Positions 4,313 through 63,053 of a DNA stretch of 64,000 bases are shown piece by piece. How positions within the stretch are numbered: position 1 is the first letter of the stretch; every line of letters begins with the position of its first letter. The DNA comes from Gemmatimonadota bacterium. Lineage in GTDB: Bacteria > Gemmatimonadota > Gemmatimonadetes > Gemmatimonadales > GWC2-71-9. Both the position numbers and the translations under genes were made by a program. The stretch lies in assembly GCA_041691295.1 (NCBI GenBank), contig JBEPVA010000002.1, forward strand, positions 4,271-68,270, in the 5' to 3' direction. The notes under the pieces were generated by a model. The model worked only from the letters and a program-made list of their open reading frames with translations, had not been told where the DNA came from and ran no database searches.

Positions 4313-4389
4313 GGAAGGTGAGAGGTGAGCGGTAAGAGGTGAGAGGGAACTGCCTCGGGCATCCCCTCTCCCATCTGCCATCTTCTCTC
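4313..4389. repeat. phased heptamer element: (GAGAGGT-like)x5, two spacer units, (TCCCNTC-like)x4
   Basis: GGAAGGT GAGAGGT GAGCGGT AAGAGGT GAGAGGG | AACTGCC TCGGGCA | TCCCCTC TCCCATC TGCCATC TTCTCTC, all in one 7-nt register. Fills the spacer between the zinc-ribbon gene start and the ntrC-like stop. Confidence 0.85.
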
Positions 4390-4391
4390 TC

Positions 4392-5738
4392 CTACAATGG
4401 AATCGCATACCGTTTGATCTTGTTGATCAGGGTCGCCCGGGAGATGGCCAGCTCCTGCGCCGCCCTGGTCCGGTTGCCATTGTGGTAGCGCAGGGTCCGT
4501 TCGATGTGGCCCCGCTCCAGCTCATCGACGGTCATCGGGGTGTGGCGCCGGTCACCGAAGCCGGGGCGGGCCCGGAACTCCGATGGCAAATGCTCTACTC
4601 CAACCGCCGCCTGGCCGTTGGCCAGGATCAGGGACCGTTCGATCACGTTGCGCATCTCGCGCACATTCCCCGGCCAGGCATAGCTCAGCAGCCGCTCCAG
4701 CGCCTCGGACCCGATCGCGGCCGGGCCGCCCGTGACGTGGCGTTGCAGGTCGTTGAGCAGGCGGTTGATCAGCAGCAGCTTGTCCTCACGGGTCCGGTCG
4801 CGGAGCGGCGGCAGCTCGATCGGCATCACGTTGAGCCGGTACTGCAGGTCTTCCCGGAACCGGCCGGCTTCGACGTCAGCCGCGAGGTTCCTGGTCGTGG
4901 CGGCGATCAGCCTGACATCGACCTCGACCTCACGGGTGCCACCGACCCGACGGAAGCTGCGGGTCTCGAGGGCCTTGAGCAGCTTGGGCTGCAGTTCCAG
5001 CGGTAGATCGCCAACCTCTTGCAGGTAGACCGTGCCGCCATCGGCAATCTCGAACAGCCCACGGCGCCGTTCCATGGCCCCTTCCACGGCTCCCTTTTCC
5101 GCGCCAAACAGCTCCGCATCAAGGGTACCAACCGGCAGTCCCCAGCAGGACAGCTGCACGAACGGATGGCCCGAACGCGGGCTCAGCCGGTGCAGCAGCG
5201 ATGCCAGCCAGCTTTTGCCGACACCCGGCTCACCGCGGAGCAGCACGGTGGTCCGTTCGTTCTGGGCCAGGAGCCCGAGCTGGCGCTGGAGATCCCGCAT
5301 CGCTGGTGAGGTGCCGAGCGCTTCGAGGCCATCGGTAGGCAGGGTGTTGAGCAGCAGCCGTTCGTTGAGCCGGCGGAGCCGGACCTTGTCGGCCACCCGG
5401 GCGGTCGCCGCCACCAGGTGCGCCATGTCCACCGGTTTGGAGAGGAAGTTCTCGGCACCAAGTTGCATCGCCTTGACGGCGGTGGCAACATCGGCGGCGC
5501 CGGTCAGCAGGATGACCGCGGCATTCCGTTCCTTCAACCGTTCCAGCACCTCGAGTCCGTCCATTCCCGGCAGCCGGAGATCCAGCACCACGACTTCCGG
5601 TCTGAGCCGGTCATAGGTGGCCAGTCCGTCCTCACCGCTCAGTTCGCGGGACACCTCGTAGCCCAGCTGCTCGAAATATCCTCCGAGCGAGCGCAGGACA
5701 TCCGCGTCATCATCGATCAGCAGTACCGAATCAGCCAT
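4392..5738 (-). CDS. sigma54-dependent response regulator (NtrC family: REC + AAA+ + HTH)
   Basis: N-terminal REC (LLIDDDADVL...VVLDLRLPGMDG), Walker A GEPGVGKSWLA, and a C-terminal Fis-type HTH (RTRAAQELAISRATLINKIKRY). Confidence 0.9.
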   Translation of the reverse strand: MADSVLLIDDDADVLRSLGGYFEQLGYEVSRELSGEDGLATYDRLRPEVVVLDLRLPGMDGLEVLERLKERNAAVILLTGAADVATAVKAMQLGAENFLSKPVDMAHLVAATARVADKVRLRRLNERLLLNTLPTDGLEALGTSPAMRDLQRQLGLLAQNERTTVLLRGEPGVGKSWLASLLHRLSPRSGHPFVQLSCWGLPVGTLDAELFGAEKGAVEGAMERRRGLFEIADGGTVYLQEVGDLPLELQPKLLKALETRSFRRVGGTREVEVDVRLIAATTRNLAADVEAGRFREDLQYRLNVMPIELPPLRDRTREDKLLLINRLLNDLQRHVTGGPAAIGSEALERLLSYAWPGNVREMRNVIERSLILANGQAAVGVEHLPSEFRARPGFGDRRHTPMTVDELERGHIERTLRYHNGNRTRAAQELAISRATLINKIKRYAIPL

Positions 5739-8007
5739 TGATCACCTTCCCCGGGGCGCCGGTGCGGGGCAGCTCAAACCAGAAAGCCGCTCCGCCGGTC
5801 GCGAGATTCTTGACCTGGATGTCGCCACCGTGCGCCCGGATGATACCGTGGGATATCGAAAGTCCCAAACCGGTGCCTTCACCCACGCCCTTGGTGGTAA
5901 AGAACGGTTCGAAAATCTTGGGCAGGACATCCGGCGCAATGCCGGTGCCCGAGTCGCACACCTCGCAACCCACCACCCGGTCGGTGGACCAGGTCCGGAT
6001 CACCCCTTCACCGCCGCCCCGTCCCGCCATCGACTGGGTGGCGTTGAGCAGCAAGTTGGTCAGCACCTGCTGCAGCTGTTCGGCATCACCCGGCACTTCG
6101 GGGAGCCGGTCGTCCAGATCGAGCGACCAGCGCGCCCCTTCGGTGGCCCGGGGTGTTCCGGCCAGGGCGTTGCGAATGACCTGGTTGAGATCGGTCTCGC
6201 TGCGCTTGAGTGGCCGCTGCCGGGCAAAGGTCAGCAACTCGGTGACGATGCGAGCGGCCCGGACCGCTTCCCGCCGGATCGAATCGGCCACGCTGGCGGT
6301 ATCCTGGCTGGCGGCCGGGTCGAGTGACAGCGCCTGGGCCAGGGCCGCGATCCCGGCCAGGGGGTTGTTCAACTCGTGAGCGACCCCGGAGACCAGCTGG
6401 CCCAGGGCCGCCAGCTTTTCGGAATGGGTGACCCGCTCCCGCAGCTTGACTTCGTCGGTCACATCCCGGGCGATCAGCAGCACCGAGCGGTCGTTGCCCG
6501 CTTCATCGTAGGCCACCGCTACCGCATCGGCTACCCGGCTGCTGCCGTCGAGCCGGGCGACGTGAAAGGTGAAGGCCCGGGTTTCGCCCCGGAAGCTGGC
6601 GGCCAGGTGAGCCTCGACCTGGAACAGCTCGTCGGGCTGGATGAAATCTCCCACCCGCCGGCCCCGATCCCGCCGGCCCAGCTCGGCCAATCCCACCGCG
6701 GCGTGATTGACCGACTGGAAGCGGTAATCGCGGCTGACCGTGAAGATGGCCAGTGGTGCGGCCGCGAACAGGGCCCGGAACCGGGCCTCGGAGCGGCGCA
6801 GCGCTTCGCTTGAATGCCGCTCGCGGGTGACATCCCGGATCACCGCGACGGTACCGGTCCGGGTGCCCCGCTCCTCGAGCGGCGCCTGTGAAACGGCAGC
6901 GTACCTGGGACCATCGGCGTGAGCCACCGTCGCGGTGTACCGCGCCAGCGGCGGTGATTCCTCGCTGGGACGGTCGTCCGGCGGCAGCAGGGTATCGAGC
7001 AGCTGGCCATGCAACTCAGCGCTGGTCCGGTCAAACAGTTCGCAGGCCGTCCGATTGGCAAAGACCAGGTGTCCGTCGGGATCCGCTATGACGATGGCGT
7101 CCTCGGCGGTCTGGACCAGCCGGGTGAACCGCTCCTCGAGCTGGACCAGCGCCGTGAGATCCTCGACTGCGACCACCAGTCCGCCCATCGGCCTTGGGGT
7201 GGCGGTGACCACCAGATGACGGCCATCCCGGCCCTCGAGCGGCTGGCTGACCCGCATGTTGGTCGCAATGGCCTGGAGCAGCGGATCGTCGGCCGGCGAG
7301 GGCCACGCCGGAAACAGGCTCCTGATATTGAGGCCCGGCAGCGCGGTGACCGGAACGCCGGCCAGGTCGGCCAGGAAGCGATTGCCCCGGCTGACGTGGC
7401 CAGTGGCCTCGACCAGGGCCAGGCCGCTGCCGGTCCCGTCAAAGGCCGACTGCCATTCCCGCTTGATCCTCGACACCTGGTCGAGCAGCCGGCTCTTGCC
7501 GATGGCCAGCGCCGCGATCTCCGCATAGGCCGAGGCGATGCCGCGTTCATCCGGCGGATAGGCGCGGGGCTGATCGTGATACAGTGCGATCGACCCGATC
7601 ACTTCGCCGGCGAAACGGAGCGGGAGTGCCGCCAGCGCCGCGATCCCTTCCCGGGCCGCCTCCAGCTTGAGCGGATGGTCGGGGTCGGCGGCGATATCGG
7701 TCACGAAATACGGCTCGCCGGCCTGGACCGCCGCAGCCACCGACGGATAATCGCGCAGCCGGCTTACTGCCGTCTGGATGTATCCCGACGAGAGCCCGAT
7801 CGAGAAGCGGCACTCGACCGCGCCGCGAGGCCGGTCGAAGATGAAGACCGCCGCCCGCTCCGCCTCGAACACTCGCAGCCCCTCGAGGGCGCTGGCCTGC
7901 ATCGCGCCTTCGGCGTCCTCGGATTCGGTGAAGCGGTGGGCCAGCCGCCCCAGCGCCTCGACCTGCGCCAGCCGGCGGGTCAGTTGTTCGGGGCTGGCGA
8001 CCGTCAT
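5731..8007 (-). CDS. sensor histidine kinase with GAF and PAS domains
   Basis: 758 aa. H-box VAHELNNPLAGI. HATPase N/G boxes (NLLLNATQSM, GTGLGLSISHGII). Upstream GAF/PAS-like segments. 8-nt overlap with the response regulator gene. Confidence 0.9.
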   Translation of the reverse strand: MTVASPEQLTRRLAQVEALGRLAHRFTESEDAEGAMQASALEGLRVFEAERAAVFIFDRPRGAVECRFSIGLSSGYIQTAVSRLRDYPSVAAAVQAGEPYFVTDIAADPDHPLKLEAAREGIAALAALPLRFAGEVIGSIALYHDQPRAYPPDERGIASAYAEIAALAIGKSRLLDQVSRIKREWQSAFDGTGSGLALVEATGHVSRGNRFLADLAGVPVTALPGLNIRSLFPAWPSPADDPLLQAIATNMRVSQPLEGRDGRHLVVTATPRPMGGLVVAVEDLTALVQLEERFTRLVQTAEDAIVIADPDGHLVFANRTACELFDRTSAELHGQLLDTLLPPDDRPSEESPPLARYTATVAHADGPRYAAVSQAPLEERGTRTGTVAVIRDVTRERHSSEALRRSEARFRALFAAAPLAIFTVSRDYRFQSVNHAAVGLAELGRRDRGRRVGDFIQPDELFQVEAHLAASFRGETRAFTFHVARLDGSSRVADAVAVAYDEAGNDRSVLLIARDVTDEVKLRERVTHSEKLAALGQLVSGVAHELNNPLAGIAALAQALSLDPAASQDTASVADSIRREAVRAARIVTELLTFARQRPLKRSETDLNQVIRNALAGTPRATEGARWSLDLDDRLPEVPGDAEQLQQVLTNLLLNATQSMAGRGGGEGVIRTWSTDRVVGCEVCDSGTGIAPDVLPKIFEPFFTTKGVGEGTGLGLSISHGIIRAHGGDIQVKNLATGGAAFWFELPRTGAPGKVING

Positions 8008-11900: not shown

Positions 11901-13339
11901 TTGAACATCACGTTGCGCAGGCTGCCGTTGACGCTGCCCGATGCGGCCACCCGTCCGTTGAGCGGCACCGCCGGCGCCAGCCGACGCACCGTGCGCAGGT
12001 CGATATCGCTGGAGTCGACCTCCACCTCGTCGAAGTACAGCCCGGCATCCCCGCCCAGCCGCACTCGGCCCTTCATGGCGATTTCGGTTTCGGCCGGCGC
12101 CGGCACCCTGGCATCCTCGAACAGCCAGTTGACGTCGATCGCCATGTCGGTGAGATAACCATCGCCACGGGTGGGGCCGGTCAGCTTTCCCTCGAACGGC
12201 AGGTCCGGCACGAATGGCTTCATCACCGACAGATCGAGATGGTCGAGATCCAGATCCATGCCCTTGAAGCCGAGTCCCCGCTTCTGGTCCACCAGCAGGG
12301 TGACCTTGCCCTTGAGCGCGCCGGGCGCACCGCTGAGCGCGAGGTCGCTGAGCTGGTAATCGGTTTTGGTATCACTTTCCGACTTGGCGACCACCTTGCC
12401 CTTGCCGGCCAGCGGCGGCAGCCCCGGATTGATCCAGAGCAGGTCGTTGAGATTGAGCCGCGCTGCGTTGAAGCGGAAGTCGAACAGGATCGGGCCACGC
12501 GGCCAGGTCACGGTGCCGCCACCCTGCACCCGGGTGTCAGGCAGCGCGGCGTGAGCGGCGGTGAACTGCAGGCTGTCTCCCGCGGTCCATCCGTGGGCCA
12601 CGAGATGCGTGATGGTCAGCGCTGGATCGCTGATCCGGGTGGCCAGCGTATCGATCTCGAACGCAAAGGGCTCGTGCTTCGGAGTGGTGAGCCGCAACTT
12701 CGGGAAGTGCGCGGTGAGCGGCACGAACCGGATCACCTTCTTCAAGCCGTCGGGGCTGGGATCGATTTCCCGGCCCGGATGCGCCCGGTCCGCCGCCAGC
12801 GCCGCCGCAATTCCCGACGGGGTGTGCACGCTATCAGGCGCCGACCACGGCATCGAGAGGACGAGATTGGCCTGGCGTACCCAAACGTCGTGAAATTCGA
12901 CCAGTGGGCCGGGCTTGCCGCTGGGCGGACCTTCGCTGAGCTTGAGCACCTCTTCGTAATTCATCCGACCGTTGGCCCGCTTGGTCAGGTGCACGGTGGG
13001 GCTGTCGAGCTCGACCCGGGTCAGCACCAGGTTCCTGGCCAGCAGGGTGGAGAGATTATAGGTCACCCGCAGCCGGGGAAACTGGGCCAGCAGCGCGCCT
13101 GAGGTGTCACGTACCACCACATTGCGCAGCGTCAGCGAGCGCAGGATCGAACCGGAGACCGCGCCGATCTGGAATTGGCCGCGAAGATTCCGGCTCAGCC
13201 GGTCGCCGATGACCCGGGCCAGCACGCCCCGGCCGGGCCCGCTGAACAACAGCACCATCACCACCGCCAGGACGATGGGCAGGCTGCTGATGAACAGCGC
13301 AAGGAAGAGGCGGCCAGTGTGCTTGAGGAATCGGCGCAT
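8903..13339 (-). CDS. tamB: TamB-like translocation and assembly module protein (AsmA-like/DUF490 family)
   Basis: 1478 aa. N-terminal TM anchor (LFLALFISSLPIVLAVVMVLLF), a very long beta-rich body, and a TamB-like C-terminal region. The start (13339) directly abuts the stop of the Omp85 gene (13340). Confidence 0.8.
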   Translation of the reverse strand: MRRFLKHTGRLFLALFISSLPIVLAVVMVLLFSGPGRGVLARVIGDRLSRNLRGQFQIGAVSGSILRSLTLRNVVVRDTSGALLAQFPRLRVTYNLSTLLARNLVLTRVELDSPTVHLTKRANGRMNYEEVLKLSEGPPSGKPGPLVEFHDVWVRQANLVLSMPWSAPDSVHTPSGIAAALAADRAHPGREIDPSPDGLKKVIRFVPLTAHFPKLRLTTPKHEPFAFEIDTLATRISDPALTITHLVAHGWTAGDSLQFTAAHAALPDTRVQGGGTVTWPRGPILFDFRFNAARLNLNDLLWINPGLPPLAGKGKVVAKSESDTKTDYQLSDLALSGAPGALKGKVTLLVDQKRGLGFKGMDLDLDHLDLSVMKPFVPDLPFEGKLTGPTRGDGYLTDMAIDVNWLFEDARVPAPAETEIAMKGRVRLGGDAGLYFDEVEVDSSDIDLRTVRRLAPAVPLNGRVAASGSVNGSLRNVMFNGTMDHQDGERPVSTVEGKLGLDTRKDDVVFDVEGLLNPLSFDGIRGSFPGMTARGEIHGPVKLQGPLAHLQTHAEVEGQVGHIKADGGLTVLPPRLGAESLTVVFDHVDLPQLLGKGPSTALAGTLKVNGVIDSLVPPEGRLDARLSPGSIDAFAFDSMAVAVDATGGRLVFDTLTAVWQDGRLDGRGELGWHRDQDGELTLQLAAARLTPFDTVATLLLGEASDSVARAHPLDGTASGLVRLRGSFDSLDARAQLEVRDLSWRSLRSPADSIDLAWIGGVRPRSAVAVVFDSLSIGQWSLHNADLHAAGFTDSLGWGGSVDIGRLGRASSTGTMQRLPLGYLVVLDSLRAVLPDHSWRLVAPSRALVGDSVVAVSPMRFEAEDGAGELRIGGLLPRAAGGQLRLSAASVPIRDVYAMLQWDTTQVHGTFSLNLELTGTAAKPEIHGGLALADVGLGDFSTPFIQGSVLYTDQKLKANLDVWKTGASIMQLEAALPLDLALHKVAKRQLPGPILIRAHSDSTDLTILEAVTRAVRQVTGSLAVDAELGGTWDAPALSGTLALRGVGANLPGLGVRYDNITGKAIFHGDSISLESFRLNGGKGSLEVTGGLRLEKLTHPLLNLTLKPDNFQAMDIRGVASLNASGDLKITGSPLLPTISGRVTANEGAYYFADLINKRVVDLENPGDSSLIDLEQLRTARLGNTFMKRFLDSLTIQDLRVTMGESFWLRSSEANVQLEGSLLVNKQRANYRVDGTLSTVRGSYQLRVGPVIRDFSVEHGTVQYYGNPSLNADLDITARHVVHTTDNVSGNEELPVIAHITGTMLAPKLELTTDASRGALSTTELVSYLMFGRSSISSGEAGASADQTAVTSAMSYLSSALSSELQRTLVTDLRLPIDYIEIRPGSISRPGAATQNGASQVAQLAAGWRIGHSFFVTVHADVCTNQTRFYPDVEYRLSREFRLSATLEPVASCTDLLTLRSLQDRGRYQFGVDLIWEREH

Positions 13340-15472
13340 CTAGAAGGGCTGCCCCACGGCAAAGTGCAGATTCCACCCGCTGCCGCGGGGCTTGGAGTAC
13401 GCCGATTTCACCAGCCGGATATTGCCCTGGCTGTCCTGCAGGTAGAGCGGGCCCGGCGTACCGGGATAGCTATTGTAGGCCAGGTCAAGACGGATCGGCC
13501 CGATCGGGGTGCCGAATCGGAGTCCGACCCCCGGCGTGATCCGGAACTGGGCGGGGGCCAGGTCGGTCTTACCGCGCTGGTACAGGATCCCGCCGTCGAC
13601 AAACCCCGCCAGCCGCAGCCGCGAGGAAAGCAGCGGCGACGGCACCCGGATCTCGACATTGGCAACCCCGAGCGTGTTCCCGCCCGTCGGCGAAAAGGTG
13701 CTCCGAATGGTGCCGTCGCTGATCTTCTGTTCCAGCGACGGAGTCAGCACGGCGCTGTCGGTGTAGGCCACGTAGACCAGCGGGCCCAGGCCGTTCACAT
13801 CGTAGCCCCGCACATCGTTGGGCCCGCCGGCATAGAACCGCTGCTCGGGCGGCACGAATTCCGTCGCGGTGCCGTTGACGTCGACCTTGGGTGAAAACAG
13901 CATCCCGCCCCGCAACCGCCAGCTGAGTGTCACGTCCCGGGTCAGCGCCCGGTACCACGCTGCATCGGCCTGCACCCGGACGAACTGCTGCAACTTGGAG
14001 GATCCGATGATCGGCGAGCTGTACCCGAGCTCGAGCGAATAGGCACGGCCGCGGCTGGGATCGACTGGATTGTTGGTCTGGATCGAGCTGATGACCCCGG
14101 TGAGCTCCGCCCCCAGCCGCCCCTGGGACAACAGCAGCCGGTCCTGCGGGGTGCAGGCGTTGAAGAAGGCGCAGTAGTTTCCCGGAGTCGCGTAGGTCCG
14201 GCCGAATGAGGCCCGGTAGGTCAGCGAGATCGGCAGCCGCGGCTCCGGCAGGTACGTGGCCCGGACCGCGGCACCGATTTCATCCCGGCGATAGACCTGA
14301 AACTGGCTGCGCCGCTCGCCGAAGAACGAGAAGGTCCCCTCGGTGCGGGACGAGAAGAACCGGGGCTGACCCACGGTGGCGGTGACGTTGTAGTTGGCCA
14401 CACTCGATCCGACCGAGTCGGCCTTAAGGGTGGAGCAGATCGAATTCTTCAGACCAAAATTGAACGGAGTCCCCACCCCGATCTTCGACAGGCTGGCGCT
14501 GAGATCGAACTGGCGGCCGCTGTGAAACAGGTTCCGGTCGGTGTAGCCGGCGCCCAGCCGGAAGCAGTCCTCGGTGGCGTACCCGATCTGGCCCCGGTAC
14601 TTGAACCGCCGCCCTTCGCTGACGGTCACCACCAGTGGCACCACCGAATCGTCGGGCTGGAACCCGGCTGAATCGATCTGCACCGACACGGTGCGGAACA
14701 ACTGGGTGCGGGCCAGCCGATGCTGGCTCTCGTCGAGATCCTGCTGGTCGAACGATTCGCCCCGGTCGACCACCAGCATCTGCCGGATGAAGGTGGTATC
14801 GACGTTGACCTTGCCGGCCACCGTAATCCCGCCGTACACCGCTCCCCGCCCCGGCAGTGCATCCAGCGACACCTGCACCGTCCTGGCCACCTTGTCGATC
14901 GAAAAGTTGCGCAGCACATCGGCCGACGGGTGACCGTGGTTCCGCAGCCGGGCCACCAGGGTGTCGGCACTGGCCTGGAACAGGAACCGGTCGAACGACC
15001 GGCCGATCCGGAGCGGCAGGTCCTGGGTCAGCTTCCTGGCGTCGGGCAGCGAGTCGAGTCCGGTGACGGCCAGCGAAGTGACCACGACCGGCGGACCCTC
15101 GGTAATCTTGAAGGTGACGCTGACTTCCTTCGGCTTGCGGATCACGACGGTGTCGACCTTCACCTCGAGAAATCCGCTCTGCTTGTACAGCAGCCCGATC
15201 CGCAGCACGTCTCGGCGGAACTCGGTTTCGTCGAACACCCGCTTTTGACCGAGGCCGATCCAGCGCACCAGCTTGCTGCGGGCAAACCAGGCCGAGTTGG
15301 TGGTGGCGATGGCGGAACTCAGGGCGTCGCTGGTGAGAGACTTGTTGCCGGTGAATTTGAGTCCCCTGACGATCCGATCGGGTTCCTGCGCCGAGGCGGA
15401 CCGGACCCCCGTCACGATCAGGAGGAGTCCGGCCAGCGCCGTGCTCAGATGGAGACGGCCGATCAGGGGCAT
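13340..15472 (-). CDS. Omp85-family outer membrane protein assembly factor (BamA/TamA-like) with POTRA domains
   Basis: Signal peptide MPLIGRLHLSTALAGLLLIVTGVRSASAQ. The track's TTG at 15505 is the maximal extension. POTRA-like IVRGLKFTGNKSLTSDAL. C-terminal beta-barrel ending ...HFAVGQPF (terminal Phe beta-signal). Confidence 0.85.
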   Translation of the reverse strand: MPLIGRLHLSTALAGLLLIVTGVRSASAQEPDRIVRGLKFTGNKSLTSDALSSAIATTNSAWFARSKLVRWIGLGQKRVFDETEFRRDVLRIGLLYKQSGFLEVKVDTVVIRKPKEVSVTFKITEGPPVVVTSLAVTGLDSLPDARKLTQDLPLRIGRSFDRFLFQASADTLVARLRNHGHPSADVLRNFSIDKVARTVQVSLDALPGRGAVYGGITVAGKVNVDTTFIRQMLVVDRGESFDQQDLDESQHRLARTQLFRTVSVQIDSAGFQPDDSVVPLVVTVSEGRRFKYRGQIGYATEDCFRLGAGYTDRNLFHSGRQFDLSASLSKIGVGTPFNFGLKNSICSTLKADSVGSSVANYNVTATVGQPRFFSSRTEGTFSFFGERRSQFQVYRRDEIGAAVRATYLPEPRLPISLTYRASFGRTYATPGNYCAFFNACTPQDRLLLSQGRLGAELTGVISSIQTNNPVDPSRGRAYSLELGYSSPIIGSSKLQQFVRVQADAAWYRALTRDVTLSWRLRGGMLFSPKVDVNGTATEFVPPEQRFYAGGPNDVRGYDVNGLGPLVYVAYTDSAVLTPSLEQKISDGTIRSTFSPTGGNTLGVANVEIRVPSPLLSSRLRLAGFVDGGILYQRGKTDLAPAQFRITPGVGLRFGTPIGPIRLDLAYNSYPGTPGPLYLQDSQGNIRLVKSAYSKPRGSGWNLHFAVGQPF

Positions 15473-15538
15473 GAGGGCAGCAGGCGAGACCTGAATTCCA
15501 GACAAGAGCGCCGGGCCGACAGAGCCCGGCGGCGTTGA

Positions 15539-15567
15539 TTGACGATGCGGTCCAAGTGACGTAGTTT
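15539..15567 (+). promoter_or_regulatory. sigma70-type promoter candidate for the ABC substrate-binding gene: TTGACG -17 nt- TAGTTT
   Basis: Read directly: TTGACG 15539-15544, a 17-nt spacer, TAGTTT 15562-15567. Lies in the divergent Omp85/SBP intergenic region. Confidence 0.35.
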
Positions 15568-15630
15568 CGCAGAGTTACGAGTCAGAGTCAACGAGGCGGA
15601 ACCGTATTCCCGCCGCCGCCCGCGCCCCCC

Positions 15631-22411: not shown

Positions 22412-22467
22412 GGTGGTTCCGGGTTTCAGGTTCCAGGTTCCAGGTTCCAGGTTCCAGGTTCCAAAGG
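22412..22467. repeat. tandem heptamer array (CCAGGTT)n, 4 perfect plus flanking degenerate units
   Basis: GGTGGTT CCGGGTT TCAGGTT CCAGGTT CCAGGTT CCAGGTT CCAGGTT CCAAAGG, in the divergent nitrilase/fprA region. Confidence 0.9.
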
Positions 22468-22531
22468 TTGTGCTGCTGGTCGATTGATCGCTAGTCTGAC
22501 GGATCATCCCGGCCTCCCTCCTCCGTTCACT

Positions 22532-22587
22532 TTTCGCCATTTGCCTTTCGCCGCTCCCCTCTCCCATCGCCCGTCTCCCTTCTATCT
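22532..22587. repeat. pyrimidine-rich phased heptamers immediately upstream of fprA
   Basis: TTTCGCC ATTTGCC TTTCGCC GCTCCCC TCTCCCA TCGCCCG TCTCCCT TCTATCT. Shares CCCCTCTCCCATC with the element at 4362. Confidence 0.75.
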
Positions 22588-22595
22588 TATGCCCC

Positions 22596-25154: not shown

Positions 25155-25220
25155 GAAGACGGCGCAAGGAGGAAGGCGGAAGCGTGACAAAATGTTTTGC
25201 TCTCCTCCTTCCTCCCTCCT
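25151..25220. repeat. phased heptamer element: (GAAGGCG-like)x5 ... (CCYTCCT)x3
   Basis: GTAGGAA GACGGCG CAAGGAG GAAGGCG GAAGCGT | GACAAAA TGTTTTG | CTCTCCT CCTTCCT CCCTCCT in one register. GGAGGAAGG (25168-25176) is complementary to CCTTCCTCC (25207-25215). Confidence 0.8.
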
Positions 25221-25244
25221 GGTTCTTCGTTAGGTTGGACCCCC

Positions 25245-26384: not shown

Positions 26385-26386
26385 AC

Positions 26387-26409
26387 CATTGCAGCGCAAT
26401 GCTTTGTGT
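26387..26409 (+). terminator. weak hairpin plus T-rich tail after aroB
   Basis: CATTGC-AGC-GCAATG followed by CTTTGTGT. The stem is short (6 bp) with a 3-nt loop. Confidence 0.3.
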
Positions 26410-26478
26410 CTAGTCCTTCCGGCAAACTTACCCACAATTCATGTGGAAGGTCGACAACCACTGGAACTGCATAGCCAG

Positions 26479-26506: not shown

Positions 26507-26510
26507 TCGC

Positions 26511-40645: not shown

Positions 40646-40688
40646 GCCTTGACGATACCGGTGATAGGAGGAGTTCGTAAGAGTCGGA

Positions 40689-42021: not shown

Positions 42022-42059
42022 GGGACAATGCTAGACGAGCGGTGGCACCGGGGGAAGTT

Positions 42060-42212
42060 GGGATGGCGGGATGGGGAGAAGTCGGGATGGGGGGAATGCT
42101 TGCGAAAAGACGCCGCACGGACGGCAATCCGAACCGGCTTCGGATCCTGGTGTATAGTTAGGAGAGTGGGATCGGGACGGAACGATTCCCCCCATCCCCT
42201 CATCCCCACATC
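42060..42212. repeat. octamer-phased G-rich arm / C-rich arm with a 14-bp perfect inverted repeat
   Basis: GGGATGG at 42060, 42068 and 42084. GGGATGGGGGGAAT (42084-42097) is the exact reverse complement of ATTCCCCCCATCCC (42185-42198). The right arm reads CCCCCCAT CCCCTCAT CCCCACAT. Confidence 0.85.
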
Positions 42213-42224
42213 CGAAATCGAAGC

Positions 42225-43503: not shown

Positions 43504-43620
43504 GAGGTCGGAGTTGGGGGTGGGAATCACACCGGATCCTTGGTCCCGGAAGCCAATTCTCCTTCGAGGACCTGACTCCTGACTCCCAACTCACGACTCC
43601 CGACTAACGACTAACGACCC
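43504..43620. repeat. (GAGKTSG)x3 ... (CTGACTC/ACGACTM)x7 heptamer element between convergent vWA and M48 genes
   Basis: GAGGTCG GAGTTGG GGGTGGG (43504-43524). CTGACTC CTGACTC CCAACTC ACGACTC CCGACTA ACGACTA ACGACCC (43572-43620). The arms are imperfectly complementary (shared GAGTTGGG). Confidence 0.85.
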
Positions 43621-49384: not shown

Positions 49385-49414
49385 GTACCGCAAGCCGGGC
49401 AGCACGGCAGGCTT

Positions 49415-49440
49415 CGAAGGGGTGTCAACACGCCCCTTCG
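49415..49440 (+). terminator. hairpin downstream of the hydrolase gene (no U-tract)
   Basis: CGAAGGGGTGT-CAAC-ACGCCCCTTCG, an 11-bp stem including one G-U, 30 nt after the stop. Confidence 0.45.
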
Positions 49441-49479
49441 TCGCATGTGTGAATGATCTTCGGCTCGGGCGTCCTTAGC

Positions 49480-49488
49480 ACGCCGTTC
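49480..49488 (+). promoter_or_regulatory. ACGCCGTTC box (AlgR/LytTR-like core CCGTTC)
   Basis: The exact 9-mer also occurs at 48222-48230 and 49661-49669, all in intergenic DNA on the plus strand. Confidence 0.35.
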
Positions 49489-49550
49489 GGAAAGGGGCGG
49501 CATCGCCTGGTGGGAACCGGTTCCTCTCTTGCGGAACCCCCAGGAGGCTT

Positions 49551-49591
49551 CGGGGAGGCGGCACTTGCCGTCTCCCCGTTGCATTTGTGTG
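49551..49591 (+). terminator. strong rho-independent terminator-like hairpin inside the 370-nt intergenic region
   Basis: CGGGGAGGCGGC-ACTT-GCCGTCTCCCCG (12-bp stem, one G-U) followed by TTGCATTTGTGTG. Confidence 0.6.
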
Positions 49592-49660
49592 CACCCGGGC
49601 GCGCTCGCTCGTCATCGGTCGGACAGCATGCACATTCACGGCCGACTGGTCCCCGAAATG

Positions 49661-49669
49661 ACGCCGTTC
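49661..49669 (+). promoter_or_regulatory. ACGCCGTTC box (AlgR/LytTR-like core CCGTTC), 85 nt upstream of the LytS-type kinase start
   Basis: Exact 9-mer repeat of 49480-49488 and 48222-48230. Reads ACGCCGTTCGCC. Confidence 0.35.
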
Positions 49670-49753
49670 GCCCCTTCGAGACCCGGTGGCGCCCAGCCAC
49701 GAAACGCCGCCGCGCATCGGGGCGTATCGTTCTATCTCAGTCTCGTCGAGCCA

Positions 49754-50926
49754 ATGAACTCATTCAGCCGATGGATCGAAGGGCCCGGACCTTCGAGCGA
49801 GCACTGGCGCCGGGCCGGTATCACCGCGGCAATCATTGCGGGTGGTTGGACCACCTTTGGCGTGGTGTCATTCGGACAGGCGTGGCTGTACTACACCCTG
49901 CCCGGCGCCGGTCGGGAACCGCCCATCCACCTGTTCATGCTGGCCATGGGCAGTGCCTGGATCTGGGCGCTGCTCACCCCGCTGGCACTCTGGTGGTCTG
50001 CACGCGTGGTCAGGAGTCCAGCTCGCTGGGCCCGTATTCTTGGCCTCCACATACTGGCGGGAGTCGCCTTCATCGTGGTGTCGACCGGCCTGGAGCGCAG
50101 CCTTGCCACGCTGCTGCTCGGGACGCCGGGACCATCCTTTGCCCGCAGCCTGCTCTATCGGTTCGACAGCCGGTTCCTGGCGTATCTCATCATCGTGACC
50201 CTGGCCCAGGTCAGCCGCATCCTGACGCTGTCTCGCGACCGCCAGCTGGAATCGGCCCAGCTCGCCACTCAGCTGGCCCGGGCCGAGTTGCAGGTGCTCA
50301 AGATGCAACTGCAGCCGCACTTCCTGTTCAATGCCCTGAATGCTATTTCGGAGCTGGTGCACCAGGATCCCGGTACCGCCGATCGGCTGATCGGGCGACT
50401 GGGTCACCTGCTGAGGCTGTCGCTGGACCAGGCCGCTGGCCACCAGATGGTGCCGCTGCGACAGGAGCTCGAATTTCTGTGGGCTTACCTCGAGATCGAA
50501 CAGACCCGGTTCGGCACTCGGCTGGCCGTGGAAATCGTGGCCGGGCTCGAAGTGCTCGATGCCGCGGTGCCAACTTTGCTGCTACAGCCGCTAGTCGAGA
50601 ACGCCATCCGCCACGGCGCCGCCCAGCGTTCCGAGGGCGGCCGCGTCAGCCTGCGGGCTCGCCGGGACGAGGAGCGGCTGCGGATCGTGGTCGAGGACAA
50701 CGGTCCAGGGTTTCCCGAAGCCGAGTCGAGTTTGCCGGCCGGACTCGGACTGCGCAATACCCGTGAACGGCTGCGCCAGCTGTACGGCGCCGATCATCGC
50801 TTCCGCCTGGCCAACGCCCCAGAAGGCGGGGCGCGCCTGCTGCTTGAGGTACCGTTCCGCGAAATCAGCCAGGCCAATACCCCACTTCACCTCCGGGCGG
50901 TCCCGCGCCCGCCGGTCCGGCGATGA
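49754..50926 (+). CDS. LytS/YehU-type sensor histidine kinase
   Basis: N-terminal multi-TM region, then ..AELQVLKMQLQPHFLFNALNAISELV.. (His_kinase PF06580-type H-box) and HATPase (..NAIRHGA.., ..DNGPGF.., ..GLGLRNTRERL..). Confidence 0.85.
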   Translation: MNSFSRWIEGPGPSSEHWRRAGITAAIIAGGWTTFGVVSFGQAWLYYTLPGAGREPPIHLFMLAMGSAWIWALLTPLALWWSARVVRSPARWARILGLHILAGVAFIVVSTGLERSLATLLLGTPGPSFARSLLYRFDSRFLAYLIIVTLAQVSRILTLSRDRQLESAQLATQLARAELQVLKMQLQPHFLFNALNAISELVHQDPGTADRLIGRLGHLLRLSLDQAAGHQMVPLRQELEFLWAYLEIEQTRFGTRLAVEIVAGLEVLDAAVPTLLLQPLVENAIRHGAAQRSEGGRVSLRARRDEERLRIVVEDNGPGFPEAESSLPAGLGLRNTRERLRQLYGADHRFRLANAPEGGARLLLEVPFREISQANTPLHLRAVPRPPVRR

Positions 50927-52138: not shown

Positions 52139-52140
52139 AC

Positions 52141-52265
52141 GGACAGGCGGACAGGCGGACAGGCGGACAGGCGGACAGGCGGACAGGCGGACCGAAACTA
52201 ATTAACGGTTCGCCATCTCGTCGCTCGTCGCTCGTCGCTCGTCTCTCGTCTCTAGTCTCTCGTCT
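52141..52265. repeat. (GGACAGGC)x5 perfect octamers ... (TCGTCKC/TAGTCTS)x8 heptamers
   Basis: GGACAGGC x5 at 52141-52180. TCGTCGC x3, TCGTCTC x2, TAGTCTC, TCGTCTG, TAGTCTG at 52210-52265. Central AACGGTTCGCCATC. Confidence 0.9.
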
Positions 52266-52288
52266 GTAGTCTGCCTACCTTCTCACCC

Positions 52289-54055: not shown

Positions 54056-54705
54056 CCGCAGTCATTCGGGTGCTGGTGGCCGATGATCACAGCGTGGTGC
54101 GCGAGGGATTGCGCCATGTGCTGGCCGGCGCGCCGGGATTCGAAGTCGTGGCAGAAGCAGCCACCGCGGCCGAGGCCATTGCCCTGGCCGAACGACATAC
54201 GCCCGATGTGCTGGTATTGGATATTTCGATGCCCGGCGGGTCGGGGCTGGGCGTGGTCGAGGAGATTCGGCGACGACTGCCCGATGTCCGGATCCTGATG
54301 CTCAGTATTCATGACCAGCGCGAATACGTGGTCGAGAGTGTCCGGGCCGGCGCCCACGGGTACCTGCGCAAGGATTCCACCCCGGCCGAACTGCGGGCCG
54401 CGATCACGGCGGTGCATCGTGAGGGCGCCTACTTCAGTCCCTCCGTGGCCCGACACCTCGGCGCCGCCCTCCGGGGCGATGCCGGCACCGCAATCGAGAA
54501 CGCCGGGCCCACCCTGACCCCCCGCGAGCGCGAGGTCCTGGTCCGGGTCGCCCGCGGCCTGACCAACAAGGAAACCGCCGCCGAACTCGGCATCAGCACC
54601 CGCACTGTCGAAGCCCACCGCGACAGTCTGTCCCGCAAACTTGGCATCAAGACCGTGGCGGGGCTTACCCGTTACGTCATGGAACAGGAGATGGGGCAAT
54701 CGTAG
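54052..54705 (+). CDS. NarL/LuxR-family response regulator
   Basis: REC (..VLVADDHSVVREGL.., ..VLVLDISMPGGSG..) plus a LuxR HTH (..LTPREREVLVRVARGLTNKETAAELGISTRTVEAHR..). ATGA overlap with the kinase. Confidence 0.9.
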   Translation: MTAVIRVLVADDHSVVREGLRHVLAGAPGFEVVAEAATAAEAIALAERHTPDVLVLDISMPGGSGLGVVEEIRRRLPDVRILMLSIHDQREYVVESVRAGAHGYLRKDSTPAELRAAITAVHREGAYFSPSVARHLGAALRGDAGTAIENAGPTLTPREREVLVRVARGLTNKETAAELGISTRTVEAHRDSLSRKLGIKTVAGLTRYVMEQEMGQS

Positions 54706-54722
54706 TCCGCAGTCCGTAGTCC
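54702..54722. repeat. short heptamer array (GYAGTCC)x3 starting on the response-regulator stop codon
   Basis: GTAGTCC GCAGTCC GTAGTCC. The TAG stop is at 54703-54705. Confidence 0.7.
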
Positions 54723-57086: not shown

Positions 57087-57955
57087 GGCGGCGAGGCCGG
57101 CCCGGTTTCGACCGGCGTATCCTCGCGGGCGCCCCACTCCGACCAACTCCCATCGTATACTGATACCGATTCGGCGCCGAGCTGCTCCAGGGCCAGCGCC
57201 AGGGCGCAGGCGCTCACGCCCGAGCCGCAACTGAGAATGACGGGCCGTCCCACATCGATCCCGGCGGCCGAGAAGCGCCGTCGCAGTTCCGCTGCGGGCA
57301 GCAGGCGGCCGTCGGGGCCAACCAGTTCCTGGTGTGGCAGGTTCCGGCTGCCTGGCAGGTGACCGCCTCGCAGTCCGGGCCGAGGTTCGGGCGCTGTGCC
57401 TTCGAACCGCCCTTGCGAGCGAGCGTCGACGATCTGGACCGCGCCGGAATGAACCGCCTGCCGGATAGCCGCAAGGTCCCGCACCGCGCAACCGTTGCGC
57501 TGGGCGCGGAACCGTCCCGGCGGGAGTGTCTGTGGTCCTGATTCGACAGGACGGCCTTCGCGCAGCCAGCGCTGGAATCCGCCATCCAGCACCGTGGTCC
57601 GTTCGTGCCCGAAGGTTCGCAGCATCCACCAGGCTCGTCCGGCGCTCACGTTGGTGCCTGAGCTGTCGTAGACCACAATAAGATCGTCGTCCGACACCCC
57701 GAGCGCTTCCATCCTGGCGCTGAACTGCCGTGCTGACGGCAGCATGTGAGGCAGCGGCGTGTCCGGATCGCTGCTGGCGTCATGATCGAAGAACAATGCG
57801 CCGGGGATATGCGCCGCCAGGAATTCGGCGCCGGGATCACGTCCAGCCTGGGGGAGGTACCACGACGCGTCGAGGACCCGAACGCCAGGCTCGGTGAGCC
57901 AGCTGGCAAGACGGTCCGGATCGGTCAATGTGGGGATGGAGGATGGCAGGGCCAT
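57083..57955 (-). CDS. sseA: 3-mercaptopyruvate/thiosulfate sulfurtransferase (tandem rhodanese)
   Basis: ..VRVLDASWYLP...HIPGALFFD.. and the active-site loop ..VILSCGSGVSAC.. (CG[ST]GV[ST]A). Confidence 0.85.
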   Translation of the reverse strand: MALPSSIPTLTDPDRLASWLTEPGVRVLDASWYLPQAGRDPGAEFLAAHIPGALFFDHDASSDPDTPLPHMLPSARQFSARMEALGVSDDDLIVVYDSSGTNVSAGRAWWMLRTFGHERTTVLDGGFQRWLREGRPVESGPQTLPPGRFRAQRNGCAVRDLAAIRQAVHSGAVQIVDARSQGRFEGTAPEPRPGLRGGHLPGSRNLPHQELVGPDGRLLPAAELRRRFSAAGIDVGRPVILSCGSGVSACALALALEQLGAESVSVYDGSWSEWGAREDTPVETGPASPP

Positions 57956-57970
57956 CCCCTATTCTACTGT

Positions 57971-60565: not shown

Positions 60566-60628
60566 AGCCATCAGCTGTCAGCCTCTAGCCGTTAGCTAAC
60601 GGCCAACGACTAACGGCTAACGACTGCC
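60566..60628. repeat. nine phased heptamers (AGCNNNC / GRCTAAC) with a central 16-nt perfect palindrome
   Basis: AGCCATC AGCTGTC AGCCTCT AGCCGTT AGCTAAC GGCCAAC GACTAAC GGCTAAC GACTGCC. GCCGTTAGCTAACGGC is a perfect palindrome. The array overlaps the serC stop. Confidence 0.85.
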
Positions 60629-61741: not shown

Positions 61742-62953
61742 CTACGTCTGGATGGCGGTCAACTCGACCGAGATGACGTTGGGATTGCCGTTGCGGATGG
61801 CGGCCATCGCGGCCTCGGTGGGCGCGCCGTCGAGGTGGACCCGCACGATGGTGGCCTGGGCACCGTGATACAGGATGCTCTCGACTTCCTCGACGTTGAT
61901 GCTCGAATCGGCCAGCACCCGGAACACGTCGGCCAGCACGCCCGGCTTGTTCTGGTGCCGGATCGAGAGGATGTGACTGGCGGCGCTCCGGGCCAGGCGG
62001 TTGACGCAGTTGGGGACCTCGCCGCGCTCGCGGTACGCCTGCACGATCCGGAGGACTTCGTGCGCGATGGCCACCTGTGCCTGCTCGGTGCTGGCCCCGA
62101 CATGGTGCGACCCGTACACCCCTGGCGCCCTGGCAACGGCACTGTCGAAGTCGGCCTTGCTGCCGGCCGGCTCATTCTGGAAGACGTCGAGCCCGGCCCT
62201 GATGCCCCTCGATTGAAGGGCCGCCAGCAGCGCAGCCTCATCGACCACCGAGCCGCGGCTGGTGTTGATCAGGTAGGCCCCCGGCTTGAGGGCCGCCAGG
62301 AATTCGGCGTTGACCATGTTCCTGGTCTCGGCCGTCGAGGCCACGTGAATCGAGACCGCATCGCTGACCCGGGCGACATCGATCGGGGTTTGGGCATAGC
62401 TGATGCCCAGCCGTTCCGCTTCCGCCACCGTCAGATTCCGCGACCAGGCCACCACGCGCATCCCGAATGACCTGGCCCGCACGGCCACTTCCCGCCCGAT
62501 CTGCCCCAGCCCGACGATGCCGAGGGTCCGGCCGGCCAGGCCGCGAGCCTTGGAGTACTCGCCCTTGTTCCACTTTCCGGCCCGCAGCTCGATCGTCTGA
62601 TCGGCCACCCGGCGGTCACATTCCAGCAGCAGCGCCATCACCAGCTCCGCCACCGCAATCGAATTCTTGCCGGGGCAGTTGGTCACGAAGATCCCGCGGG
62701 CCGAGGCCGCAGCCACATCGATCGTGTCGATCCCGGCGCCTGCCCGGATGACCATGGCCAGCCCCATTCCTGCCGCCAGCGCATCGGCCGTGACTTTCTT
62801 GCCCCGCACGATCAGGATCGCGGGATCGACCTCCCGGATAAGGGCCGGCAGGTCCTCCGCCTTCACGTCGGGATTGAGGGTGACGGTGCAGCCCAGTTCC
62901 TTGAGCCCGTCGAGGCCGACCTTCTCGAATTTGTCAGCGATGAGAACGTTCAT
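61742..62953 (-). CDS. serA: D-3-phosphoglycerate dehydrogenase with C-terminal ACT domain
   Basis: ..LGIVGLGQIGREVA.. (NAD GxGxxG), ..NTSRGSVVDEAAL.., ..HVGASTEQAQ.., ACT-like ..HILSIRHQNKPGVLADVFRVLADSSINVEEV.. Confidence 0.9.
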   Translation of the reverse strand: MNVLIADKFEKVGLDGLKELGCTVTLNPDVKAEDLPALIREVDPAILIVRGKKVTADALAAGMGLAMVIRAGAGIDTIDVAAASARGIFVTNCPGKNSIAVAELVMALLLECDRRVADQTIELRAGKWNKGEYSKARGLAGRTLGIVGLGQIGREVAVRARSFGMRVVAWSRNLTVAEAERLGISYAQTPIDVARVSDAVSIHVASTAETRNMVNAEFLAALKPGAYLINTSRGSVVDEAALLAALQSRGIRAGLDVFQNEPAGSKADFDSAVARAPGVYGSHHVGASTEQAQVAIAHEVLRIVQAYRERGEVPNCVNRLARSAASHILSIRHQNKPGVLADVFRVLADSSINVEEVESILYHGAQATIVRVHLDGAPTEAAMAAIRNGNPNVISVELTAIQT

Positions 62954-62989
62954 TGGAGATTCATTGGGAGTTCGTGGCTATGGGGCCAA

Positions 62990-63053
62990 AGGTCGAGGGT
63001 CGAAGGTCGAGAACAGCTCGGAGTGTGTGCGGAGGCCACTCGACCCTCGACCT
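62990..63053. repeat. (GGTCGAR)x3 ... (TCGACCY)x2 heptamer element with a 14-bp perfect inverted repeat
   Basis: AGGTCGAGGGTCGA (62990-63003) is the exact reverse complement of TCGACCCTCGACCT (63040-63053). Both arms are in one 7-nt register (offset 49 nt). The right arm overlaps the DUF1015 stop. Confidence 0.9.

Follow-up and report, generated by a model that had tools for sequence, protein, structure and literature searches.

In the 64-kilobase (kb) stretch of Gemmatimonadales DNA analysed here (the whole of it hereafter the window), spacers between genes are recurrently occupied by tandem arrays of 7- or 8-nucleotide (nt) units, typically a G-rich arm followed by a C-rich arm. These spacer arrays are real, recurrent, non-random and lineage-wide. 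When sequences are compared, they resolve into families of whole elements that have copies at unrelated sites and that are present or absent at orthologous ones. The explanation that we favour, as somewhat probable, is a REPIN-like family of palindromic minisatellites, selfish or neutral, that would be kept up at the DNA level and whose transcript hairpins would be a by-product. The original prediction, a reading of the letters of the window, had reported phase-locked short-period repeats with a purine-rich and a pyrimidine-rich arm at at least 14 loci; its account of recurrence and variability is borne out below, and parts of its account of form and kind are revised.

The window has a guanine-plus-cytosine (GC) content of 63-70% and carries ordinary chromosomal genes (two-component regulators, TamB/BamA-like, ABC transporter, glycolate oxidase subunits, aroB, serine pathway). 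Gene calls based on a codon log-odds model trained on the window left 29 spacers of at least 30 nt. Tandem Repeats Finder (TRF) called arrays of period 7, 8 or 9 at every locus of the original prediction, and about 40% of the spacers of at least 30 nt contain an array, not almost every sizeable one as had been stated. Period-7 arrays cover 384 (8.5%) and period-8 arrays 178 (3.9%) of the 4,537 non-coding bases, against 41 and 55 of the 59,463 coding bases (<0.1%), a per-base enrichment of more than 50-fold. The shuffle control called for with the prediction gave the same picture: 11 of the 29 spacers have a period-7 or period-8 array, compared with 0.30 expected after dinucleotide shuffling and 0.63 after shuffling in 25-nt blocks, which keeps local purine/pyrimidine skew (100 shuffles of each kind; maximum 3 spacers with an array), and arrays cover 522 spacer bases rather than the 5-13 expected. 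Autocorrelation of the spacers peaks at lags 7 (z=7.6), 14 (z=7.1) and 8 (z=3.1). The left half of the spacer is richer in purines than the right in 22/29, and the ratio is 19 to 2 among spacers whose halves differ by more than 0.1.

Searching with the aroB product brought up close relatives only among Gemmatimonadota/Gemmatimonadales metagenome-assembled genomes (MAGs), with gene order conserved across the order; the best relative of the window, contig L001, shares 94% protein and ~86-91% DNA identity with it. The comparison covered 160 related contigs, ~2 Mb in total, numbered L001 onwards together with other fetched sequences. Set 1 comprises 80 genome loci and the window (1.25 Mb; arrays counted at >=2.8 copies), and set 2, which is independent and was fetched through another gene, comprises 80 metagenome contigs (0.81 Mb). 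The nearest protein identity to the window in the metagenome scan was 73%, so that the comparison runs between species and not within one, and of four exact-protein look-ups none yielded more than contigs of the same sequencing run, identical to the window.

Period-7/8 arrays occur in 52/81 sources of set 1 and in 42/80 metagenome contigs. For periods of 5, 6, 7, 8, 9, 10 and 11 nt, set 1 has 1, 0, 69, 50, 15, 5 and 0 non-coding arrays, respectively; set 2 has 100 of period 7 and 28 of period 8. The element plan is cleaner in the relatives than in the window: ~4 unit copies, a centre of ~25 nt and ~4 reverse-complement copies. Neighbouring arrays of the same period are reverse complementary with at most one mismatch per unit in 34/44 cases in set 1 and 34/40 in set 2, and none of the same-period pairs of set 1 are direct repeats at that threshold. 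In the pooled pairs the centre has a median of 25 nt (interquartile range 16-43) and the median copy number per arm is 4.1, with 79% of arms in the range 3-5. The ~170 kb of outgroup loci (L070-L080: lower-GC Gemmatimonadota, Acidobacteriota with GC up to 0.70, and Anaerolineales) contained no arrays, so that high GC alone does not produce them. Some Gemmatimonadales are array-free as well; examples of array-free lineages are L003, L006, L033-35 and the L070-72 types. Ten period-7 arrays occur in L061, a MAG of an uncultured Gemmatimonas sp.

Pairs with the G-rich arm first outnumber those of the reverse order by 47 to 5 in set 1 and by 38 to 5 in set 2; together they make up 85 of the 95 pairs with unequal arm skew. 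Because the order purine then pyrimidine reads alike on both strands, G-richness of the sense strand is expected after stop codons and C-richness before start codons, and both are seen. Arrays without a partner follow this rule too, being G-rich on the sense strand beside stops (24 vs 2) and C-rich beside starts (13 vs 2). The position of the G-rich arm 5' of the C-rich arm is thus a single primitive property that contains no information on gene orientation.

We found that the elements are dispersed as sequences, and the view that only an architecture is conserved does not hold. Window positions 18081 and 31290 hold copies of one element in which both arms and the centre align (73% column identity), and relatives repeat elements, centre included, at unrelated sites. 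In L027 the elements at 7070 and 8218, 1.1 kb apart, have both arms and a non-repetitive centre in common within unrelated flanks. A 75-nt element (GCGGAAT x4, a centre with TCGCGCGTC, ATTCCGC x4) occurs in the linker of the iron-sulfur protein GlcF in L037, L052 and L053 and in the glcD-glcE spacer of L039, and all its copies carry the variant third unit TCGGAAT. Single units are also reused at several spacers of one genome (e.g. L048, L008, L019, L027). Orthologous sites may be filled or empty: one is filled in L091 and empty in L090 with flanks ~88% identical, and the L027 7070 site is empty in L009, L017 and L013. The VWA-domain gene orthologous to window 42225-43496 is uninterrupted in ~45 contigs and filled in three others, by in-frame insertions of 69, 78 and 87 nt.

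The elements also change in concert. In the two elements of a Kgd/SucA-like gene (described below), an arm differs from its partner by 0.75 mismatches per 7 nt and the two sites in one genome differ by 1.1, compared with 2.05 for the same site across genomes. The VWA insertion reads GGCGGGAA/TTCCCGCC in one contig and GACGGGAA/TCCCGTCG in another at a single orthologous site. In these alignments the arms, and nearby copies in one genome, are seen to change together between genomes. Slippage is visible as whole-unit differences between L001 and the window: L001 lacks 18 nt (two units) of the GlcF linker relative to window 31358-31413, and it has extra GGTTCCG units (x10.7) at the place orthologous to the array at 22415-22463. 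One could ask whether the arrays are nothing but slippage filler produced in situ and mirrored by hairpin-templated repair, with no copying between sites. Such filler would account for the sharp preference for periods 7 and 8, the gain and loss of units and the mostly locus-specific units of the window, and Mrazek's slippage idea for heptamers, as cited in PMC4692102, points the same way. It does not account for near-identical elements with non-repetitive centres and a shared variant unit at non-homologous sites, for filled and empty sites that are clean and lack intermediates, or for the reuse of units at several spacers per genome. We consider it improbable as a full explanation; slippage filler, one of the roles first suggested, is half of the story.

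The elements of the window are as follows (strand is given where the feature has one).

4316-4346: left arm, AGGTGAG x4.4 (TRF); on the minus strand C-rich and upstream of the ATG (4298) of a 66-amino-acid zinc-ribbon open reading frame (ORF).
4362-4391: right arm, TCCCATC x3.1 plus TTCTCTCTC; on the minus strand G-rich, adjoining the stop (4392) of a sigma-54 response-regulator gene.
18086-18112: G-rich arm, CGGACCGA x3.4, 5 nt past the ABC permease stop (18080); homologous to the arm at 31300.
18164-18226, plus strand: C-rich arm, TCCGTCCTG x5 (27-nt super-unit x2.3), in frame as AVLPFSSVLSVLPVLSVLFVLL.
22415-22463: GGTTCCA x7 in a divergent spacer, beside the GTG start of a CN-hydrolase gene; purine-neutral.
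22510-22591: weakly periodic, pyrimidine-rich leader tract upstream of ATG 22596.
25153-25182: purine-rich arm of AGGAAGA/GGCGGAA units, overlapping the stop of a GNAT-adenosyltransferase gene.
25199-25222: pyrimidine-rich arm, CTCTCCTCCTTCCTCCCTCCTGG, 22 nt upstream of the aroB ATG (25245).
31300-31334, plus strand: G-rich arm, GGACCGTC x4.4, in frame in the linker of the GlcF-like iron-sulfur protein (ORF 30832-32145).
31358-31413, plus strand: C-rich arm of 9-nt units, CCGTCTCGT / CCGTCCTAC, in frame in the same linker.
32149-32170: G-rich arm, GTGACAG/GTGAGGG x3.1, 3 nt past the GlcF stop; hairpin z=-3.4 on the plus strand.
32178-32205: pyrimidine-rich partner arm, upstream of an HAD hydrolase gene.
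36659-36690: AGGAGAG x4.6, 100% match, pure purine, starting inside the TAG stop of the gene at 35251-36660.
36712-36740, plus strand: canonical terminator-like hairpin plus T-tract, the centre between the arms of the 36661 element.
36757-36779: C-rich partner arm, CCCCTCTCCTCTCTGCTCTCTGC, 90% complementary to the purine arm 36659-36690 in several registers.
40685-40734: purine-rich arm of 7/14-nt units, GGAGATAGAAGAC; on the minus strand the pyrimidine-rich leader of a cytidylate-kinase-like gene.
40763-40807: CCCCCAGC x4.5 (96%); on the minus strand GCTGGGGG, adjoining an MFS transporter stop.
42050-42104: G-rich arm of GGGATGGC units in a divergent spacer; the leader of the MFS gene contains its complement.
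42178-42213: C-rich arm of TCCCCACA units in the leader of the VWA-domain gene; includes the perfect core ATTCCCCCCATCCC.
43505-43525: G-rich arm in a convergent spacer, after the VWA gene stop; fold z=-3.1.
43574-43618: GACTCCC / ACTAACG arrays x4.3-4.6; on the minus strand G-rich, overlapping an M48 peptidase stop.
52140-52192: CGGACAGG x6.6, 100% match, 1 nt past the TAG stop of a DUF4440 gene.
52216-52272: TCTCGTC x8.1 (88-90%), 16 nt before a histidine-kinase ATG; not complementary to the left arm 52140-52192.
54704-54722: AGTCCGC x2.7, containing the TAG stop of a LuxR-type response-regulator gene; a single array and the weakest locus.
60571-60625: palindrome of GCTAACG/CCGTTAG units, overlapping a class-V aminotransferase stop; z=-6.5 on the minus strand.
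62990-63011: arm of GGTCGAG x3; on the minus strand C-rich, upstream of a 2-hydroxyacid dehydrogenase / ACT-domain (serA-like) gene.
63037-63053: arm CTCGACCCTCGAC, adjoining and overlapping the DUF1015 stop.

Several statements about these loci can now be sharpened. Unit sequences are mostly locus-specific within the window, as first described, with at least 12 different units in 64 kb, and arm complementarity does vary widely (fold z-scores of the loci run from -6.5 to +1.8; the whole 36661 element has z=-5.3). The perfect 14-nt inverted repeat 62990-63003/63040-63053 is present, and the perfect 14-nt core at ~42084/42185 (GGGATGGGGGGAAT/ATTCCCCCCATCCC) is read inside a 36-nt pair, 42069-42104/42178-42213, that is 78% complementary. 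The plan of a purine arm followed by a pyrimidine arm holds as a polarity, with exceptions at 54704, where no partner arm was found for 54704-54722, and at 60571-60625, which is a near-neutral palindrome. Most loci are intergenic as described, except that 31300-31413 is in frame in the GlcF-like ORF and 18164-18226 reads as the core of a signal peptide. By contrast, the unbroken 7-nt register ascribed to some elements carries no weight, as any period-7 array fits any 7-nt grid, and there is no phase lock: in 68 pairs, the phases between an arm and its reverse-complemented partner are spread uniformly (counts for the 7-mers: 6, 7, 7, 10, 6, 5, 9). In L001 the tract orthologous to 22510-22591 forms the arrays CCTTTCG x4.1 and CTCCCCT x5.3. 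The 40763-40807 array is G-quadruplex-capable and not complementary to its partner. We also noted a short divergent spacer at window 57929-57970 that is nearly all one hairpin, GGGGATGGAGGATGGCAGGGCCATCCCC, with the G-rich side first; its unit is of the GGGATGG type found at 42060 and is the complement of the 4362 unit.

Elements reside within genes in several places. The frame at 18164-18226 is read directly, and from it we infer a translation as the hydrophobic signal-peptide core of an S13 D-Ala-D-Ala carboxypeptidase; the Pfam match of the S13 peptidase begins at residue 72 of the long ORF. The GlcF linker measures 66-195 nt among relatives and is in frame in 29/30 genomes compared, and many genomes hold there an array pair with a differing unit (GCGGAAT, GTCAACG, GGTGGAG, GGGGTTG, GGGCAGN, GGGTCAGG and others). 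A Kgd/SucA-like ORF of 1,200 amino acids has two linkers, each with an element, in at least eight contigs. In L101 this 2-oxoglutarate dehydrogenase ORF (11980-15582) contains two in-frame array-pair elements ~780 nt apart, and two-element orthologues are found in L089, L090, L103, L105, L107, L116 and L150. Both Kgd elements use a unit variant specific to the genome, and their conceptual reading gives linkers rich in Gly/Glu/Arg and then in Pro/Ser. The GlcD ORF of L038, L039 and L052 reads through a whole element (14768-14839, 13709-13788 and 5978-6064, respectively) to a stop 10-12 nt beyond, so that here the element seems to form a translated C-terminal tail and not to lie behind the stop.

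At gene ends the arrays are placed closely. Among array-bearing sources, 31% of tandem, 31% of convergent and 12% of divergent spacers have an array; arms lie a median of 2 nt from the stop (range -7 to 16, n=22) and a median of 25 nt from the start. This placement raises a serious rival explanation, namely that the elements are RNA hairpins selected at gene 3' ends, as bidirectional terminators, 3'-end protectors or insulators, in a high-GC genome with few hairpin-plus-U-tract terminators. The G-first order would then put pyrimidine-rich RNA on a purine-rich DNA template, the weakest hybrid under the polymerase as the hairpin closes, whichever the direction of transcription. The contact with stops, the 2.5-fold rarity in divergent spacers, the G-rich arms beside stops in convergent spacers (24 vs 0) and the very stable predicted folds (-40 to -150 kcal/mol) all accord with this idea. 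So do the scarcity of canonical terminator-like sites, of which two in spacers are convincing within 40 kb, and the centres that are themselves canonical terminators flanked by arms. Against it stand the many in-frame copies within ORFs, where a terminator would be harmful and such a device is not expected, the window arm pairs that are unable to pair, and the orthologous spacers that are filled in some genomes and empty in others. Moreover, the arms 25153-25182 and 25199-25222, 16 nt apart in the window, are ~650 nt apart in L001, which indicates that arms can persist without pairing. We judge a selected 3'-end role to be unlikely while treating it as a serious contender, and the pure terminator of the original prediction conflicts with the in-frame copies.

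Exactly between those L001 arms lies an ORF (2904-3428) for a predicted membrane protein of 174 amino acids; either it was inserted into the element's centre, or the lineage of the window has lost it by deletion. Two further ideas about stop codons were rejected. A general G-richness behind stops is absent where no array is present, and back-up stop codons in the arms are not enriched (a stop triplet occurs in 14/65 units in the sense and 10/65 in the antisense direction).

Selection on a sense-strand RNA is not apparent from either of two tests. Among 25 co-oriented contexts the sense fold was the stronger in 10 and the weaker in 15 (Wilcoxon p=0.28), and single arm mismatches are transitions that split evenly between G.T and A.C (7 vs 7), giving no sign of G.U wobble being favoured in the sense strand. 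Arm complementarity is therefore kept symmetrically, which fits DNA-level conversion or a bidirectional function better than selection on one transcript. Rfam covariance models gave 0 matches at gathering score in the whole window. Among the window elements the intrinsic-terminator form (hairpin plus U-tract) occurs only in the centre of the 36661 element, TTTT or AAAA is present in 5/59 centres, and arms end C-rich, not in T-tracts. Alone, 13/59 centres fold (z below -2), including several classic terminators and one REP-like palindrome, so that the arms often flank a pre-existing hairpin.

Structures other than B-form DNA have been proposed for the Xanthomonas and Nostoc repeats and might act here as regulators of neighbouring genes, in the form of G-quadruplex, i-motif or H-DNA triplex. 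The window has textbook G-quadruplex motifs at 40763-40807 (minus strand) and 42050-42095 and a pure purine mirror tract at 36659-36690, and arms typically have ~4 units, a number also stressed by Rehm et al. (PMC4692102). However, this mode lies close to the detection threshold of TRF, and neither structure serves as a general explanation: 26% of 136 arms have at least four runs of G3 or longer and so the capacity for a three-tetrad G-quadruplex, 10% are >=90% purine, so that H-DNA, another of the suggested roles, fits a minority, and neither structure can arise from units such as GCTATCG, TCGGCTA and GCGGAAT. We regard such a regulatory role as very unlikely.

A role as landing pads for proteins or ribosomes, for example C-rich leader repeats that recruit ribosomal protein S1 where a Shine-Dalgarno sequence is lacking, seems just as remote. 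Leaders are indeed C-rich: in 384 genes from the window and L001-L069, C is 0.40 and G 0.27 at -30..-13, and C reaches 0.54 at -1, often as CCCC-ATG. A Shine-Dalgarno-like motif lies at -18..-4 in 19% of these genes, the C-rich arms stand at the distance from starts given above, and a similar reading was given to the TAACTGA repeats of Beggiatoa (PMC4679880). Yet units differ between loci and genomes and offer no single binding site, half of each element lies behind stops or inside ORFs, and the C-richness of leaders is general and not linked to arrays. C-rich leaders precede most first genes (e.g. 22596, 25245, 32231, 52289), and judging from these motif counts, translation initiation in the lineage seems largely independent of Shine-Dalgarno pairing.

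That the arrays are assembly artefacts of simple repeats has a probability close to nil. Two Logan short-read contigs of run SRR27874556, L081 (window 36662-40794) and L082 (window 2741-7109), are 100% identical to the window. L081 begins and ends within arrays (36662, 40794, the latter inside the 40763-40807 array), which indicates that such repeats fragment short-read assemblies; exact copy numbers in the window thus rest on one assembly, except for the 4299-4391 spacer element, matched exactly and in full by the independent contig L082. On the other side, the architecture is found in >90 independent assemblies, including contigs of 0.3-1.8 Mb, orthologous arrays are kept in L001, and intragenic copies keep the reading frame.

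Given these results, we return to the REPIN-like, DNA-level explanation. The window arrays would belong, as copies that are in part decayed, to a class of small palindromic elements widespread in Gemmatimonadales. Each element has ~4 tandem copies of a unit of 7 or 8 nt (9 nt in some cases), then ~25 nt of centre and ~4 reverse-complement copies, with the G-rich arm 5' on either strand; some centres are longer and contain a hairpin or terminator of their own. Replication slippage may add and remove units, hairpin-templated or copy-to-copy conversion may keep the arms complementary, and some machinery may copy whole elements to new sites. Elements would survive only where the sequence is free to vary, that is, behind stops, in leaders, in in-frame interdomain linkers and in a signal peptide. 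The pattern "G-rich after stop, C-rich before start" follows geometrically from the G-first polarity and does not require a design oriented to genes. When transcribed, an element would form a long hairpin directly behind the stop codon, which makes REP-like effects on termination, 3'-end stability and ribosome release likely; these are likely to be side effects and not the reason that the elements exist.

A number of observations weigh against this explanation. Most window units are found at a single locus, the arm pairs at 52139, 40646 and 22401 are not complementary, and much of the window pattern could be local slippage on decayed elements. Unambiguous target-site duplications were not seen; the cleanest filled/empty pair has AATT on both sides, which is also part of the unit. 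A mobilising enzyme did not turn up among the annotated genes of the window, which are ordinary housekeeping ones; the 30 window proteins compared with Pfam (from 64 kb of genome) include no transposase. Stop-codon contact and depletion in divergent spacers would also fit selection for a 3'-end role, and gene calls in the relatives came from a crude codon-score caller. Finally, a selfish element leaves the G-first polarity unexplained and merely makes it heritable. A more far-reaching proposal is a distinct, self-propagating palindromic minisatellite for which a dedicated DNA-level mechanism (an enzyme or lineage-specific replication or repair) writes the complementary heptamer or octamer arms, imposes the G-first polarity and routinely remodels proteins through translated linkers and parts of signal peptides; we consider this possible and, on present evidence, doubtful.

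Other spacers of the window contain features of a different kind. Between convergent genes, 39882-40024 is a 143-nt near-perfect palindrome (fold z=-7.8, -9.0) whose core motif CCYGAGCRNAGCGARGG occurs 14 times in nine fetched loci, with one copy within the GlcF linker of L045 and one in the centre of an array pair (L017 10905). This has the look of a second family of dispersed REP-like repeats in Gemmatimonadales. The 248-nt spacer at 26385-26632 is array-free and comparatively AT-rich; within 40 kb, a strong match to a sigma-70-type promoter occurs here only (TTGACC-17-TATATT, 26511-26539). The longest spacer, 49385-49861 (477 nt), is also array-free and has a hairpin with a T-rich tail at 49551-49578 and no Rfam match; a small gene or RNA that escaped annotation could lie there.

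The excess of heptamer repeats in bacterial genomes has been on record since 2007. Gemmatimonadales provide a second, independent lineage for this question, with richer data in the form of many units, filled and empty sites and intragenic copies, and comparison can now address what copies the elements, how arm complementarity is kept up and why the G-rich arm comes first. Of these questions the last is the most interesting. As the in-frame copies show, the repeats feed variation into interdomain linkers and signal peptides of core metabolic enzymes. In practice, arrays break short-read assemblies and mislead gene callers on start codons, and in MAGs of this major soil phylum a linker can be mistaken for a spacer.

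The literature search turned up no account of such repeats in Gemmatimonadetes, and the known systems that we compared are from other bacteria. The TAACTGA direct heptamers of Beggiatoaceae, cyanobacteria and Bacteroidetes occur in 2-6 copies in leaders, a few nt upstream of starts; their hosts have few Shine-Dalgarno sites, and the repeats are almost never inverted, with one indirect repeat among 170 sets (MacGregor 2015, PMC4679880). Heptamer arrays in leaders and genomes poor in Shine-Dalgarno sites are common to both cases (PMC4679880). Those repeats, unlike ours, have one fixed AT-rich unit and are confined to leaders.

As in the Rickettsia palindromic elements, palindromic repeats lie here in frame inside protein genes. 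Those elements, reportedly described by Ogata and colleagues in 2000, are said to be selfish palindromes translated at tolerant positions. They are 100-150 bp long and form a single family without tandem short-unit arms, which the elements of this different lineage do have, and we know of no G-first rule for them.

The short tandemly repeated repetitive (STRR) heptamers, also mentioned in PMC4692102, were the only precedent named in the original prediction and are a relevant one. Like them, the arrays studied here are tandem heptanucleotides dispersed in the non-coding DNA of one lineage. STRR sequences were reportedly described in Calothrix and Nostoc by Mazel and colleagues in 1990. They have a few fixed consensus heptamers (e.g. 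CCCCAGT) in heterocystous cyanobacteria, and to our knowledge they have not been described as inverted pairs. Our host belongs to another phylum, and no window unit equals an STRR consensus; the nearest, CCCCCAGC, is an octamer.

REPINs consist of two inverted copies and a spacer, fold into a long hairpin and have hundreds of extragenic copies; the families are genome-specific, persist by vertical descent and are mobilised by RAYT transposases (Bertels and Rainey 2011, PMC3116915, PMC3337134). Inverted copies around a spacer, a multi-copy family and unrelated flanks are shared with our elements. REPs are likewise found directly after stop codons, and they influence the stability of mRNA as well as termination and translation. 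The differences are that a REP arm is an imperfect palindrome of 20-40 nt, whereas our arms are direct tandem arrays of 7-9-nt units, and that REPINs are extragenic, whereas there are in-frame copies here in GlcF, Kgd and the VWA protein and one arm codes for part of a signal peptide. RAYT (a Y1 transposase), the defining gene of the REPIN system, was not among the 30 window proteins compared with Pfam; a genome-wide search was not made.

The closest match is found in Xanthomonas, where the bipartite plan had already been described for the GGGAATC repeats (Rehm et al. 2015, PMC4692102). The original prediction, which knew of no bipartite precedent, is wrong on this point, and one of the grounds it had named for its own refutation, an earlier description of the architecture, partly applies. 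The Xanthomonas repeats form 70-75 "convergent" inverted pairs per genome. The arrays mostly have ~4 units, and 89-93% of them are intergenic and 7-11% intragenic; they often touch or overlap a stop codon, their length varies between related species, and their function was given as unknown (PMC4692102). In our own reading of PMC4692102, a "convergent" pair has the G-rich arm first, and the independent recurrence of G-first polarity in Xanthomonas suggests a mechanistic cause. With the G-rich heptamers of that study (Xanthomonas GGGAATC, Nostoc GGGGA(C/T)T) our arrays have in common tandem 7-nt units in mostly intergenic positions, with period 7 dominant here and period 8 second. With those of Xanthomonas they also share the G-rich strand as sense strand behind stops and as antisense strand ahead of ORFs, the convergent pairs and the contact with stop codons (PMC4692102). 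Xanthomonas differs in having one dominant unit per genome, always with a G3-4 tract, whereas many units, 8- and 9-nt periods as well, and a G-quadruplex-capable minority of arms are found here. The feature has thus been described previously only in part: its architecture and polarity match the Xanthomonas repeats, and the present comparison adds to the 2015 account copies of whole elements with conserved centres, filled and empty sites, co-variation of the arms and systematic in-frame residence in linkers.

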